From the sequence record SRR22947725_485: a stretch of 64,000 bases of DNA, one strand, 5' to 3'. Position 1 is the stretch's first letter. Every line of letters begins with the position of its first letter. Positions 52,738 to 57,607 of the stretch are shown here, piece by piece. The notes under the pieces were generated by a model. It made no database searches, was not told the origin of the DNA, and saw nothing but the letters and a program-made list of their open reading frames with translations. Made by a program: the position numbers and the translations under genes.

Positions 52738-54579
52738 TTATTTTTTTGCTACTCGATATAATCCAACAATAATAACTGATATTAGAGCTAATGCTACGAT
52801 GTCATTATAAGGAGCTGGTAAGGCATACTCAGGCCAGAAATTTTTATCATAGAATAATGGTATCGCAATAAATATAGCCATCAATGCTTCTCCTGTAATT
52901 AAACCTGAAGCTAGCAATAAGCCATTATTTTTTCCTGTTTCAGAAGCAGTTTTTCCAGCAAAATGATTAAGCATTCCACCAACAAAAATTGGAAGAGTTA
53001 ATTCAATAGGAAGATAAATACCAATCGCTACTGCTAGTATAGGAACTCTAAATTCTGCCCCCCTTTTTAATTGATACTGATCGAGCATAATGATTAATAC
53101 ACCCAATACTGCTCCAGCATAAATCATGCCCCATTCTAGATTACCGGAGAATACACCATTTGCTACACTAGTCATCAATACTGCTTGAGGTGCAGGTAAG
53201 TCTGAGCTTCCTATACCATAAGCTTCATGTAGAAGCGTTAAGACAATTCCTAATGTTAGAGCTGAACTAACAACACCAACTAACTGCATTACTTGTTGTT
53301 TCCATGGTGTAGCTCCAACAATATTACCGGTTTTAAGATCTTGTAAGTTATCACCACCAATTGCAGCAGCGCAACATACTACAGCGCCAATTAAAATAGC
53401 AGCAGCAGCTCCTTTAGAAGAATCAATATCAAAGAAAGTAATAATTAGCAATGAGCTAAAAAGTATTGTAGCAATTGTTACACCAGATATAGGGTTATTT
53501 GAAGATCCAACTACTCCTGCCATATAAGCTGCAACAGCAGAAAATAAAAATCCAAATATACACATAATAATAGATAGTGTTATTGCTGAAGTCCAAGATG
53601 AAATAATATCAAAGTATGTAAATGATATTGGAATTAGCATTAACAAAATAGCCATAAAGACATAGTTAACAGGTAAATCTCTTTCTTCCAGTGGAATATC
53701 ATCGCCACTTTCTCCCAATGTTTTTAAGCTCAATTGTATACTTTCAACAAGAGGTTTTGCCAATTGGATAACAGACCAGATTCCACCAACTACCATTGCA
53801 CCAACACCTAAATAACGTATTTTTGCATTCCAAATAATATTTGCTCCCTCAAACAATGATTCTCCTTCAAAGCCATATAAATAAGAATAAATAGGTATCG
53901 CTACTGCCCATGAAATTAATCCACCAGAAAATGCTAGTATTCCAATATTTCGACCAACGATATACCCTACACTAATAAGAGAAGGAGAAAGACTTGCTCC
54001 CATTCCAAAAATAGCGCCTCTAATAGCTATTGCTCCACCTACAGCACTAGACCAAATTCCAAATGCCAATTCTCCAAGCTTAACAATACCCCCCATAAGA
54101 GCTGAAAAACCAATTAATTTTAAGCTTTCACTCGATTTTTTAGCATCTGATTCATGCCCAGTTTTTAATACTGCGGCCGTTGCAACCCCTTCAGGAAAAC
54201 GTAAATTTGCTTTTAAAATTAATGCACGTCTCAATGGTACAGTGAAGAGTGCGCCTAGAACTCCACCAGCCATTGCAATTTTTGTGACTTCCCAGTAATC
54301 AATTGTATCCCAATAGCCAATTAATAATAAGGCAGGAATCGTAAAAATTACCCCAGCTGCTAGTGATTCTCCAGCTGATGCAGCGGTTTGTACAATGTTA
54401 TTTTCAAGAATATTTGACTCACGAAATAATTTTAAGATTCCCATTGACATAATTGCAGCAGGAATAGAAGCAGAAATTGTCATTCCAGCATATAGTCCCA
54501 AATAAGCCATAGCAGACGAGAGAACGATAGATAAGATTATACTGAGAAAAAATGCTTTTATTGTAATTTCTTGTTTCAT
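52738..54579 (-). CDS. OPT family oligopeptide/metal-chelate transporter
   Basis: ENNIVQTAASAGES, FPEG.A, SNNPISG, QDLKTG..GATPWKQQ; ATG 54579. Confidence 0.92.
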   Translation of the reverse strand: MKQEITIKAFFLSIILSIVLSSAMAYLGLYAGMTISASIPAAIMSMGILKLFRESNILENNIVQTAASAGESLAAGVIFTIPALLLIGYWDTIDYWEVTKIAMAGGVLGALFTVPLRRALILKANLRFPEGVATAAVLKTGHESDAKKSSESLKLIGFSALMGGIVKLGELAFGIWSSAVGGAIAIRGAIFGMGASLSPSLISVGYIVGRNIGILAFSGGLISWAVAIPIYSYLYGFEGESLFEGANIIWNAKIRYLGVGAMVVGGIWSVIQLAKPLVESIQLSLKTLGESGDDIPLEERDLPVNYVFMAILLMLIPISFTYFDIISSWTSAITLSIIMCIFGFLFSAVAAYMAGVVGSSNNPISGVTIATILFSSLLIITFFDIDSSKGAAAAILIGAVVCCAAAIGGDNLQDLKTGNIVGATPWKQQVMQLVGVVSSALTLGIVLTLLHEAYGIGSSDLPAPQAVLMTSVANGVFSGNLEWGMIYAGAVLGVLIIMLDQYQLKRGAEFRVPILAVAIGIYLPIELTLPIFVGGMLNHFAGKTASETGKNNGLLLASGLITGEALMAIFIAIPLFYDKNFWPEYALPAPYNDIVALALISVIIVGLYRVAKK

Positions 54580-54586
54580 AGATTCC

Positions 54587-54615
54587 AACTTACAAATTTT
54601 TTAAGAGGGGTGCAA
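54587..54615 (-). promoter_or_regulatory. Putative sigma70 promoter for OPT gene (TTGCAC-17-TAAGTT), likely leaderless
   Basis: On the minus strand the -10 ends 7 nt before ATG 54579. Confidence 0.55.
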
Positions 54616-54676
54616 TTGCTGAGAAAATACCCTATAACTTGACCTAGATAATGCTAGCGGAAGGACAATATAAAAA

Positions 54677-54973
54677 ATGCTGAATAAATACATTTCATAT
54701 ATATTAACAATTGGAATATTCTTCATGAATATTCATGTGCATAGTCATGATTTAAACTCATTGGGTCATGATTTACGTGAACATTCTACTAAATCTGTAA
54801 ACACCGACACATATGAATGTGATATATGTAATCTAAGTGTTAATAGTCTTATTGTAGACAATGCTTCCATTGCTATAAATAGCTTCTCTTTTAATTCGAC
54901 TTTATTTGAGAACAAATCGTATTTATTTAATAATATCTATAGTATTTCGAACAAGTCTCCACCTCAAGCTTAA
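54677..54973 (+). CDS. DUF2946/CruR/CutF-like upstream ORF (TM, HxHxH, CxxC, C-terminal KSPP)
   Basis: Hydrophobic N-terminus, HVHSH, CDIC, ends NKSPPQA; directly upstream of a TonB-dependent receptor. Confidence 0.7.
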   Translation: MLNKYISYILTIGIFFMNIHVHSHDLNSLGHDLREHSTKSVNTDTYECDICNLSVNSLIVDNASIAINSFSFNSTLFENKSYLFNNIYSISNKSPPQA

Positions 54974-55000
54974 ATTACTAAGTAAAATATTCAATTGATC

Positions 55001-55019
55001 GATACCTCGAAAGGGTATC
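55001..55019 (+). promoter_or_regulatory. Small GAAA-loop hairpin between uORF and receptor RBS
   Basis: GATACC-TCGAAAG-GGTATC; AAGGAG RBS about 20 nt downstream. Confidence 0.5.
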
Positions 55020-55051
55020 AAATTTATTAAATTCATTTTAAGGAGAAAAAA

Positions 55052-57607
55052 ATGAAAAATACTATATTAACATTACTATTTATCGGCATGACTTTTGCTC
55101 AGTCAACAATTACTGGGTTAGTCGTTGATAAAAAAACAGGTCTTCCTCTAAAGGATGCAAATGTATCTGTTCTTGATGATAGTGGAACAAGCATTGCTGG
55201 AACCAGTACAGATGACAATGGAAAATTTGTCCTAAGTGTTAGCAGTAATGGAACAGTTGAAGTATCTGTTATTGGATACAAAAATGCAACTGCTGATGGA
55301 CTATTAAATCAGTCCATGATGTTTAAGCTTGTCAAAGAGGCTTTATCTTTTGATGAAGTAAAAGTTTACTCATCACTTCGTAAGGTCAATGAAGGTGATT
55401 TGGCTAGTTCAGCAATGATTTTCAATGATGAGCTTGAAGTTAGAAAAGGACAACACTTTTCAGACTTGATTCAACAAGTTCCAAATTTGAACTATGCAGG
55501 TGGAACATCTAGACCAAGATATTTCCAAATAAGAGGAGAGGGCAACGTAAGTCGATATGCTGACCAAGGACCTCCAAGTACTTATGTTGGATTAGTCCTG
55601 GATGGAATGGACTTATCAGAATTAGGTATGATTACACCTCTTTTTGATATGCAGCAAGTAGAAGTACTAATGGGTGTCCAAACTAGTTTATTTGGTGCAT
55701 CAGCATCTTCTGGTTTGATTAATTTTAAAACCCAAGATCCAACAGACAAAAAAGAAGGATATGTTTTGAGCCAGTTTGGTTCATACAATACCTACACAAA
55801 TGGACTTGTTTATAATCTACCTCTTGATAATGGTTGGAAATTAAGATTAGTTGGTCATTCTAATGTATCAGATGGATATAAAGATAATATTGCTTCAGGC
55901 ATAGATTATGCATCTGCAAATAGAGATGAAACCTCATTTAGAGCAAAGCTTCTAAAAGATGAAAATAATCTTACTCAAAAATATACAATTATCTCTTCTG
56001 ATTTTGATAATGGATATGATAATTGGGCTCCAGACAATAATACTGATAATATTACTTATTCAGATAATCCAGGAAAAGACAGTCAAAAATCGCAGATTTT
56101 TATAGCAGACTACACCTATGATGTAGGTGAAGGTTTCATTGACTTAAATATTGGTATGTCTAATAATGAAACATTACACAGCTATGATTCTGATTGGGGA
56201 AATTATGACTTCTGGTTGGATTATGAAGATCATGATGACCATGATGGTGATGATGATCACGGAGATGATCACGGAGATGACGATCATGATGATGACCATG
56301 GAGATGATCATGATGACGATCATCATGACGAGGAACATGTTGAATTTGATGCAAGGACTTACGACTTCTTTGATTCTTTTGATAGAGATATCGATACAAG
56401 AACTGTTGATTTTAGATTGAGATCAAATTCTGCCAATGATAATAGATTTGACTATGTGATTGGAATGTATCATTCAAGCTATGAAGAAAAAACTGATGGC
56501 GCAGGATATATTTTTGGAGGTTCTGCAACAGATTTAGCTTCTGGCTATGATATCACTTCAAAGTCTGTTTATGGTGAATTAGCAGTTAATTTTGATAACA
56601 ATTCAACACTATCTTTTGGATTTAGATCAGAAAAGAGAGATATGTTATATGACGATTTCAATAATAGAAGCGCAAGCTTTGAAATTGATGGCGATTTCGA
56701 TAATTCATTTAAAGTTTCATATGAATTACATCCAGCTCAAAATCTTCATTGGTTTACTTATTATGCTAGAGGATATCATCCTGCAGGTATAAATCAGAAT
56801 CCTTATTTAGAGGGAGATGAAAAAACATATGATGCAGAAATTTATCATGATGTTACTACTGGAGTAAGATGGTATACAGATAATATGAAGTTATCTACTT
56901 CTTTGTTTTACTTAGAGCATGATGGTCATATTTATGAAACAAGTGAACAGTTAGATCCAATGAATCCTAATGCATTTGCTTTCTTTAAGAAGAATGCTGA
57001 TTCAGGCTATGAATATGGTTCTGAAACAATGGGTGAGTTTAGAATAACTGATAAATTTACTATTAACGCTACTTTAGGATTATTGAGTTCTGAAGTTGAG
57101 TTGGGTGGTCATGATGAACATGGCGATGAACATGGCGATGATGACCATGATGAAGATCACGGCGATGATGACCATGATGAGGACCACGGAGATGATGATC
57201 ATGATGATCACGGAGATGACGGTCATGACGATCACGGAGATGAGGATGATCATGCAGGACATGCGCACGGTAAAAAAGCACATTCACCAAACTGGAATTA
57301 CAGCTTATCATTTAACTATGATTTCACTGTAAACAATTCCTTGATGGTTGAAATTTCAGGAAAAGATAGTTTTGTATTTGATTCTGCGCATGATGAATTT
57401 GAATCAGAGCCATATCACTTATTGAATGCATATTACACTCATTCAATCAATCAATTTGATTTAGGATTCTACGCAAAGAATATCCTAGATGAAAGTTACG
57501 CAGATAGAGGATTCATTTTTGCTTTAGAACCTCCATTTGAAGAGAAGCTATACAAATCTTTTGGACCTCCAAGAGAAATTGGAATGTCATTAACATATAG
57601 TTTCTAA
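55052..57607 (+). CDS. TonB-dependent receptor with N-terminal carboxypeptidase-regulatory-like domain and His/Asp-rich inserts (probable metal uptake)
   Basis: Signal peptide, ITGLVVDKKTG.PL..ANV, plug motifs (FQIRG, QVEVL.G...LFG), NILDESY, terminal Phe. Confidence 0.9.
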   Translation: MKNTILTLLFIGMTFAQSTITGLVVDKKTGLPLKDANVSVLDDSGTSIAGTSTDDNGKFVLSVSSNGTVEVSVIGYKNATADGLLNQSMMFKLVKEALSFDEVKVYSSLRKVNEGDLASSAMIFNDELEVRKGQHFSDLIQQVPNLNYAGGTSRPRYFQIRGEGNVSRYADQGPPSTYVGLVLDGMDLSELGMITPLFDMQQVEVLMGVQTSLFGASASSGLINFKTQDPTDKKEGYVLSQFGSYNTYTNGLVYNLPLDNGWKLRLVGHSNVSDGYKDNIASGIDYASANRDETSFRAKLLKDENNLTQKYTIISSDFDNGYDNWAPDNNTDNITYSDNPGKDSQKSQIFIADYTYDVGEGFIDLNIGMSNNETLHSYDSDWGNYDFWLDYEDHDDHDGDDDHGDDHGDDDHDDDHGDDHDDDHHDEEHVEFDARTYDFFDSFDRDIDTRTVDFRLRSNSANDNRFDYVIGMYHSSYEEKTDGAGYIFGGSATDLASGYDITSKSVYGELAVNFDNNSTLSFGFRSEKRDMLYDDFNNRSASFEIDGDFDNSFKVSYELHPAQNLHWFTYYARGYHPAGINQNPYLEGDEKTYDAEIYHDVTTGVRWYTDNMKLSTSLFYLEHDGHIYETSEQLDPMNPNAFAFFKKNADSGYEYGSETMGEFRITDKFTINATLGLLSSEVELGGHDEHGDEHGDDDHDEDHGDDDHDEDHGDDDHDDHGDDGHDDHGDEDDHAGHAHGKKAHSPNWNYSLSFNYDFTVNNSLMVEISGKDSFVFDSAHDEFESEPYHLLNAYYTHSINQFDLGFYAKNILDESYADRGFIFALEPPFEEKLYKSFGPPREIGMSLTYSF
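56225..56338 (+). repeat. His/Asp-rich low-complexity coding repeat 1 (38 aa, 10 His)
   Basis: EDHDDHDGDDDHGDDHGDDDHDDDHGDDHDDDHHDEEH. Confidence 0.95.
57110..57268 (+). repeat. His/Asp-rich low-complexity coding repeat 2 (53 aa, 14 His)
   Basis: HDEHGDEHGDDDHDEDHGDDDH...DDHAGHAH. Confidence 0.95.

Follow-up and report, generated by a model that had tools for sequence, protein, structure and literature searches.

A small putative leader open reading frame with an Asn-Lys-Ser-Pro-Pro ending between a TPP riboswitch and a TonB-dependent receptor gene

Ligand-sensing leader peptides that act on the ribosome are known from few cases, such as CruR and CutF, which respond to copper, and the stalling cores RAPP, RGPP, and PPP are considered to be under tight constraint. 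The 64,000-nucleotide (nt) sequence SRR22947725_485, hereafter referred to as the window, contains in front of a gene for a TonB-dependent receptor a small open reading frame (ORF), in the following called the leader, whose product carries a CxxC motif and ends in Asn-Lys-Ser-Pro-Pro, an ending that is previously undescribed. This raises the question of whether the leader acts in cis on the receptor gene by pausing the ribosome that translates it, or whether it encodes a small protein with a task of its own. The original prediction, which was made from the letters of the window, had read the ORF as a divergent DUF2946 protein of the CruR/CutF type that may sense Zn, Ni, or Co rather than Cu, and it had overlooked a thiamine pyrophosphate (TPP) riboswitch at 54596–54682, which overlaps the ORF start. 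In our assessment, the leader is, with a probability of roughly 0.55, a cis-acting pausing leader of the CruR/CutF design with a lysine-type motif, which controls the TonB receptor. If, in addition, NKSPP is a true arrest motif and the leader senses a ligand, the locus would constitute a two-input gate on one receptor gene, in which an RNA sensor is followed by a peptide sensor.

Anatomy and conservation of the leader

The leader and its parts are located on the plus strand of the window as follows:

54677–54973, plus strand: leader ORF, 98 codons (98 amino acids, aa), stop codon TAA at 54971–54973
54689–54733, plus strand: hydrophobic N-terminal segment, residues 5–19 (top-scoring 15-mer, mean Kyte-Doolittle value of 1.72)
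54734–54748, plus strand: His cluster HVHSH, residues 20–24, with extra His at residues 31 and 36
54818–54829, plus strand: CDIC (CxxC motif) with C48 and C51
54950–54964, plus strand: NKSPP, the proposed pause or arrest motif (KSPP at 54953–54964), followed by Q, A, and TAA

The upstream stop codon and the leader ATG are a single codon apart, residues 5–19 are read as a predicted signal-anchor or signal peptide, 41 residues separate CDIC from KSPP, and an intergenic gap of 78 nt (54974–55051) leads over to the receptor gene. All of the elements that the original prediction had pointed out, namely the ORF with its hydrophobic N-terminus, HVHSH, CDIC, and KSPP, as well as a hairpin and an AAGGAG sequence in the gap, were found again at their places. 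Structure prediction of the leader with AlphaFold2 (25 sequences) yielded a mean pLDDT of 53, whereby an N-terminal helix (residues 2–18) is the sole confident element and the values fall below 50 at residues 27–39 and 51–86. The lack of a confident fold beyond the N-terminal helix, which is also reported for CruR, was counted in favor of a pausing leader. The leader also agrees with the features of size and position in the operational definition of CutF-like proteins (PMC9973294), with a length of 98 aa, PP at residues 95–96, and the receptor gene 78 nt downstream on the same strand.

In order to describe the family, sampling was centered on the nearest genome, G001, and its relatives. The source names of the organisms that bear the family are Candidatus Neomarinimicrobiota. 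A single-protein search around the nearest genome gave a match in 29 of 37 genomes of one genus (genome size 0.7–1.1 Mb), and a profile built from 19 members detected the leader in 25 of 30 sampled genomes of that genus. Outside of the genus, the same profile yielded one weak partial match only (E 0.005, positions 6–40) in 271 genomes of the phylum. A total of 160 proteins was collected at E<=0.01, and the motif counts that follow directly refer to the best 120 of these 160, which are cluster representatives. NKSPP is present in 119 of the 120 representatives, the odd one reading LNKPP, and 117 of them contain CxxC. Between CxxC and KSPP lie 42 residues in 110 representatives and 41 in 7, and between PP and the stop codon there is one residue in 96 and two in 24 (P0136, a later match, has 8 residues beyond PP). 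Thus, the conservation of CxxC, KSPP, and their spacing, which had been proposed as a check on the original prediction, was borne out.

The alignment of 19 sequences, whose identity to the window protein goes down to 26%, contains only nine invariant columns, M1, I6, C48, C51, N92, K93, S94, P95, and P96, and outside of the motifs the identity within the family drops to 21–30%. A pattern of this kind goes beyond what chance would produce. H22 is invariant in the alignment that includes remote homologues (A2) and nearly invariant in another (A4). The codons of the invariant ending vary: Asn is encoded by AAC (8) or AAT (11), Lys by AAG (9) or AAA (10), Ser by TCT (12), TCC (6), or TCA (1), the first Pro by CCA (13), CCG (5), or CCC (1), and the second Pro by CCT (11), CCA (7), or CCG (1). 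This synonymous variation in all five codons indicates a constraint at the level of the peptide and not of the RNA. Pairwise dN/dS values of the leader amount to 0.17–0.4 (pairs with dS>=0.3), and judged from these substitutions we regard the leader as a real translated gene under moderate constraint. A role of NKSPP as a general sorting tag was considered and dismissed, since a scan of 5 genomes gave only 9 sites with the coding pattern, and 5 of these sites are the leader gene; counts of a shorter motif pattern in the genomes were near the control and hence uninformative.

Comparison with CruR, CutF, and known arrest peptides

CruR (Bp2923) of Bordetella pertussis is a DUF2946 (PF11162) protein and the leader of cruR-bfrG-bp2921. 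CruR is described as a protein of predicted poor structure in which a CXXC motif is followed, after 45 residues, by RAPP three residues from the end; the downstream TonB transporter stays switched on as long as ribosomes stall at RAPP, and copper lifts this stall (PMC9426467). The leader resembles CruR in being a small first gene with a putative export-type N-terminus, CxxC, a fixed spacer, x-x-Pro-Pro near the stop codon, a TonB transporter encoded downstream, and a predicted poor structure. This layout, which the original prediction had likened to the CruR/CutF-like design, is conserved across the family and agrees with the published descriptions; it would place such a design in a streamlined, uncultured marine phylum with DUF2946 in 0 of 301 sampled genomes. 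However, the leader family differs from CruR in that it ends in NKSPP instead of RAPP, has no match to the Pfam hidden Markov model (HMM), and has a spacer of 41–42 instead of 45 residues. Moreover, the gap to the next gene is AU-rich and 43–79 nt long in the family, whereas the Bordetella gap is GC-rich, has a length of 162 nt, and contains a Rho site. The family also belongs to another phylum, a TPP riboswitch is located upstream in the window, and no copper link is known for the leader.

CutF of Rhodobacter capsulatus, as outlined in the portions of the two reports that concern it, stalls at PPP and thereby melts a stem-loop over the ribosome-binding site (RBS) of the next gene, with EF-P counteracting, and TonB-like genes are the second most common neighbors of CutF-like proteins (PMC9973294; bioRxiv 10.1101/2025.02.05.636593). 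The leader shares with CutF the short gap and the presence of EF-P in the cell, and an unmasking of the RBS by a stalled ribosome is plausible in the lineage of the window. In contrast, CutF has CxxxC and PPP together with a stem-loop over the RBS, whereas the hairpin of the window leaves the RBS uncovered. EF-P was found in 3 of 3 and Rho in 2 of 3 genomes, so both published output routes are available.

With regard to the ending itself, the passages of PMC12992588 on arrest sequences present RAPP as an established arrest core and RSPP and HGPP as parts of reported arrest sequences, and they state that ordinary proteins show a strong avoidance of RAPP, whereas small secretory proteins are enriched for it close to their C-termini (PMC12992588). 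With the arrest peptides ApdA, ApdP, ApcA, and the SecM-type RAGP the leader has in common a C-terminal motif, a small secretory or membrane protein encoded upstream of a gene, and a core of a basic residue, a small residue, and Pro-Pro. It deviates from the RAPP/RGPP arrest peptides by Lys in place of Arg in all members and an invariant Asn before it, and by a downstream gene that lies outside of the protein-localization machinery. KSPP in connection with ribosome stalling was not found in a literature search.

A link between the two types of ending is provided by remote homologues. When 1.84 billion representatives were searched exhaustively with the family profile, 14 proteins were obtained at E<=0.001, most of which are family members or fragments. 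Two remote homologues stand out: P0131 (114 aa, E 1.2e-4), in which CLIC is followed by 44 residues, RAPP, and 6 further residues, and P0132 (127 aa, E 8e-4), in which CAIC is followed by 43 residues, HSPP, and 3 further residues, both spacers having been counted by hand from the sequences. Comparison by hhalign gave a probability of 95.0% for the family versus P0131 (E 3.6e-8, 89 columns), with NKSPP aligned on LRAPP, and of 90.1% for the family versus P0132. With 100 composition-preserving shuffles each, the maximum was 10.5% for P0131 and 5.2% for P0132, and reversed sequences stayed below 1%. The alignment of NKSPP on LRAPP thus puts KSPP at the homologous position of the canonical RAPP. 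A natural lysine-type ending at this position, which is invariant over more than 100 sequence clusters, offers a direct test of the Arg requirement.

In the ESM Atlas, P0131 adjoins unannotated clusters from Bacteroidota, which fits the Bacteroidota share of CutF-like proteins, given as 40% (normalized) in the relevant part of PMC9973294. For both queries the nearest named cluster of the Atlas is one DUF2946 cluster (36% of its members; 0.92 and 0.93), which we take as a lead only. As to the features of DUF2946 proteins, the leader family has the CXXC, while the C-terminal RAPP is replaced by NKSPP and occurs in P0131 only; compared with the DUF2946 spacing (45 residues, within one or two), that of the family is equally rigid and shorter, at 41–42 residues. 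A further protein, P0129 (2775 aa), has seven stretches that match profile positions 43–81, the CxxC region (E 1.3e-7), and is perhaps built of repeats that bear a comparable Cys motif.

A TPP riboswitch and a leader in exchange before one receptor gene

The start of the leader is overlapped by a second regulatory element:

54596–54682, plus strand: TPP riboswitch aptamer (THI element, RF00059), 53.4 bits, E 1.9e-9, full model 1–105

The score of the window copy is slightly below the RF00059 gathering threshold of 54.3 bits. Orthologous copies scored 53.4 (L002), 57.3 (L004), 58.9 (L005), and 57.1 bits (L008), with L056 within 57.1–58.9 bits. The RBS of the leader, GGAAGGA (54659–54665), and its start codon lie inside the 3′ part of the aptamer. 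In genomes G001 and G014 the TPP match at the leader locus is the sole one, and in G124, G033, and G006 there is none. As in the known TPP riboswitch class, the match covers the full-length aptamer and an RBS is placed inside its 3′ half; in this class the riboswitch precedes thiamine-related transporter genes, whereas the riboswitch of the window gates the leader ORF instead. We know of no other TPP riboswitch that is stacked upstream of a leader ORF, no search having been aimed at such stacking, and nothing about a locus of this kind was found in the literature on TPP riboswitches, TonB-dependent receptors, and thiamine in a marine setting. Weak Rfam matches to snoR17 (E 0.21) and freshwater-2 (E 0.76) were attributed to chance.

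Riboswitch and leader occur in front of the same receptor gene in three arrangements. RF00059 is absent from 16 of the 20 leader loci scanned, which keep the ORF, and 9 further leader loci, several of which end at a contig edge, gave no match. In the subclade that is nearest to the window by its leader (L003 of G003, 72% identity), no TPP match is present, so that the riboswitch is patchy even in close relatives; the distance from the leader to the neighboring transporter gene of the OPT family is about 25 nt there. Conversely, 5 of the 30 genomes of the genus gave no match to the leader profile. While in three of these (G005, G008, and G012) the receptor gene is truncated at a contig end, in G011 the OPT gene, a riboswitch for TPP with a score of 58.7 bits, and the receptor ATG are lined up within 93 nt and leave no ORF between them, and in G030, likewise devoid of the ORF, the riboswitch is degenerate (42.2 bits). 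No copy of the leader was found elsewhere in G011 (80% complete) or G030 (78% complete). At 1424–1600 of L055 (G030), no ATG of the receptor gene is evident downstream of an in-frame stop codon, and the gene may be decaying or starting at an unusual codon. Since G011 has a receptor gene without the ORF, the receptor works without the leader, and since the riboswitch abuts either the receptor gene (G011) or the ORF (clade of the window), the ORF occupies a regulatory slot. Thus, one genus offers a natural comparison of the same receptor gene behind a riboswitch, behind a leader, or behind both.

In order to arrange these states, a tree was calculated from the first 370 residues of the receptor for 24 rows, excluding duplicates and loci with shorter parts of the receptor, and with a midpoint root for drawing only. 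A branch with 100/100 support splits the 2 riboswitch-only rows from the 22 ORF-bearing ones, and the 6 rows with both riboswitch and ORF form one group (95/90) that is nested among the ORF-only rows. The simplest reading would be that the riboswitch is ancestral, that the ORF was inserted between riboswitch and receptor gene, and that the riboswitch was later lost several times. The leader start (54670–54685), the receptor start (55045–55060), and positions 1495–1510 of L056 have a common A-rich context around the ATG, and in L004 the leader start and the receptor start both read AAAAAAATGAAA. By recombination between these two start contexts, the complete leader could be removed or gained, which would yield the arrangement of G011.

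The receptor itself comprises the following features:

55052–57607, plus strand: TonB-dependent receptor, 851 aa, ATG at 55052
56225–56338, plus strand: D/H-rich insert 1 of the receptor (aa 392–429)
57104–57253, plus strand: second D/H-rich insert of the receptor (aa 685–734)

Three Pfam domains exceed their cut-offs, Plug with 39.3 bits (23.9), TonB_dep_Rec_b-barrel with 36.3 bits (27), and CarboxypepD_reg with 41 bits (32.3). Between 6 and 9 Plug-domain receptors were counted per genome (G001, G014, G124, G033, and G006). The D/H inserts vary by insertion and deletion even between close relatives that all keep the leader. Insert 1 is present in the window and in L007, L010, L011, L012, L016, L018, L019, L037, L038, L041, and L042; it is absent from L004, L005, L006, L008, L017, L031, and the receptor of G011, which have a short non-His segment instead. 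The proposal that the leader senses Zn, Ni, or Co had drawn on the His-rich loops of the receptor and the His cluster of the ORF and is weakened by this finding, as the loops vary while the ORF stays, and the link to TPP favors thiamine. The riboswitch on the locus, and directly on the receptor gene in the sister lineage, suggests that the receptor is probably related to thiamine and not to a metal. A receptor tied to vitamin B1 matters for the interpretation of vitamin traffic in ocean metagenomes. Metal sensing by the leader appears doubtful to us on the whole, albeit possible.

Gap RNA, a possible mechanism, and its rivals

Two features were located in the gap between leader and receptor gene:

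55001–55019, plus strand: RNA hairpin, 7-bp stem including one G.U pair, CGAAA loop
55040–55045, plus strand: AAGGAG, RBS of the receptor gene, of which AGGAG is kept in all loci

RNAalifold analysis of 22 gap sequences returned the hairpin as the only consensus structure, with 7 pairs, 3 of them compensatory, and with G.U pairs on the sense strand. Scanned for terminators, the hairpin is terminator-like with a poor U-tract. Besides the hairpin, the leader sequence TCTCC (54956–54960), which is located within the NKSPP codons, is complementary to GGAGA (55042–55046) at the receptor RBS. In the minimum-energy fold of the leader 3′ end and the gap of the window, GUCUCC pairs with GGAGA (−24.9 kcal/mol, z −3.3), and none of 200 shuffles was equal. 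In 16 of 28 distinct loci, among them every riboswitch-bearing one, the receptor RBS finds its best pairing partner within the leader in the K-S-P codons. Masking of the RBS is thus plausible in the lineage of the window. A Shine-Dalgarno (SD) scan of the window, which has a GC content of 31.6%, found a strong site in 6 of 48 long ORFs and any SD-like 4-mer in 17 of 48.

From these elements the following course of events might be envisaged. Translation of the leader would initiate at an RBS and a start codon that form part of the 3′ half of the TPP riboswitch, and high thiamine pyrophosphate would shut it off. The nascent peptide would bear the N-terminal membrane-targeting segment, and at NKSPP, two codons ahead of the stop codon, slow formation of the Pro-Pro bond would cause the ribosome to pause. 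During the pause, CxxC would be positioned 44–47 residues from the peptidyl-transferase center near the tunnel exit, with the His cluster outside of the ribosome. The paused ribosome would cover UCUCC (54956–54960), leaving GGAGA (55042–55046) of the receptor gene unpaired and its RBS exposed; the pause may also prevent transcription from ending within the gap. The length of the pause could be tuned by a ligand that binds at His/CxxC or by a disulfide that forms there, so that the riboswitch would be joined by a second input. In its full form, this scheme makes NKSPP a true arrest motif of a new, lysine-type class that functions on the ribosomes of the lineage of the window, and His/CxxC a nascent-chain sensor of metal or periplasmic redox state in series with the TPP riboswitch, whereby within the genus either module can be lost and the remaining one continues by itself; we put it forward tentatively and would not wager on it.

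Several findings weigh against a pausing leader. In ApcA, ApdA, and ApdP, arrest is lost whichever of the 19 other residues takes the place of the Arg in RAP(P), and replacement of Ala by Ser is only partly permissive (PMC12992588). As the Arg is irreplaceable in these peptides, KSPP would fail in those contexts and its equivalence is not to be assumed. The original prediction of KSPP in place of R-A/G-PP is right as to the position, which is that of RAPP in P0131, but finds no support as to equivalence, and it is for this reason that we only infer stalling. In Escherichia coli, a Ser preceding a proline run is a weak-stalling context. PP is not avoided in the window, with 16 occurrences observed versus 17.9 expected in 48 ORFs, so that PP alone is no block to translation. 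The family is restricted to one genus, which gives its conservation a shallow phylogenetic depth. With the PF11162 HMM, neither the window protein nor any of the 19 members gave a match at E<=10, none of 21 relatives was above the cut-off, and none of the 301 genomes of the phylum matched at E<=0.01. Nor did a search with the alignment that includes the remote homologues draw in any PF11162-annotated proteins. On this evidence the leader is not a demonstrable DUF2946 member, and the classification as a divergent one was given up. SilD, a published CutF-like protein, likewise has no Pfam match at E<=1, so the PF11162 result is not decisive for the wider CutF-like class; SilD of plasmid pMOL30, used as a CutF-like control, shows no similarity to the leader family either (hhalign 0.8%). 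The genomic context of P0131 and P0132 was not recovered in two metagenome scans or by plasmid tblastn, and a scan of genome contigs returned two spurious His-run matches only. As for the hairpin of the gap, one subclade with gaps of 43–55 nt (L011, L017, L028, and L041) lacks it; it begins about 24 nt past the edge of a PP-paused ribosome and does not include the RBS. The poor U-tract, the absence from the subclade, and the position beyond the reach of the PP-paused ribosome make a classical terminator doubtful. The pairing with the RBS is lost in 12 of the 28 loci, where Ser is encoded by TCC, TCA, or TCG, and it does not appear in the RNAalifold consensus, which together rule out long-range masking of the RBS as a universal mechanism.

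Alternatively, the leader may encode a working small protein, anchored in the membrane and facing the periplasm, which serves the receptor as a metal-binding or thiol-redox accessory and in which NKSPP is a structural or interaction motif. The dN/dS of 0.17–0.4 implies some constraint on the whole protein, His and CxxC are classic ligands and come with an export-type N-terminus, the genetic link between leader and receptor is conserved, and KSPP lacks the Arg that the tested arrest peptides need. However, such a protein would hardly be expected to have a sequence that is free outside of four short motifs and no predicted fold (pLDDT 53), or a motif that is fixed one to two residues before the stop codon in 120 of 120 representatives. 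The homologue P0131 has at the same place RAPP, which is avoided in ordinary proteins, and the receptors of G011 and G030 do without the ORF, no copy of which turned up in the remainder of these genomes. We therefore hold an accessory protein to be unlikely, if by no means far-fetched.

It could also be that the leader is translated for its effect on the receptor gene but senses nothing, the His and CxxC residues binding no ligand. It would then be a relay or tether that passes on the start decision made by the riboswitch or a promoter, be it by translation-dependent unmasking of the RBS, by protection from termination, or by holding the mRNA at the membrane via the signal-anchor during a pause. 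This would explain why the riboswitch overlaps the start of the leader and not of the receptor gene and why in all riboswitch-bearing loci the RBS pairs best with the K-S-P codons, and the variable D/H loops of the receptor do not track the ORF. For a mere relay, however, invariant C48 and C51, a nearly invariant H22, and a spacer fixed at 41–42 residues would be superfluous, and most lineages have the ORF but no riboswitch to relay, which renders this explanation rather improbable. Finally, as the leader encodes a small peptide with Cys and His next to genes for a TonB receptor and for an OPT transporter, one might think of a precursor from which a metallophore of ribosomal origin or another modified peptide is made and then taken up via the receptor. 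Against this stand the lack of maturation enzymes nearby, the further flanking genes being housekeeping ones for DNA polymerase I (PolA), alanine racemase, AtuA, and a SPOR protein, and the spread of the conserved residues over 98 residues with no leader-core pattern; we consider it very improbable.

The stretch is contained in RNA libraries of 10 runs, and the contigs of four were compared. In runs X1 and X13, contigs bridge the OPT gene, leader, gap, and receptor gene; X5 has a contig at 54590–54966 and nothing at 54970–55304, and X9 has pieces at 54663–54921 and nothing at 54922–55066. As such contigs indicate presence only, and not ends, strand, or level, and as their gaps differ, they are neutral with regard to attenuation.

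On the other side of the riboswitch, a transporter gene is read in the opposite direction:

52738–54588, minus strand: OPT-family transporter (Pfam OPT, 1.3e-102; TIGR00733, 6.7e-168)

The gene is divergent and takes the same position in every locus with a long enough flank, sometimes at only about 30 nt from the leader start. The transporter may be the inner-membrane partner for the substrate that the receptor imports.

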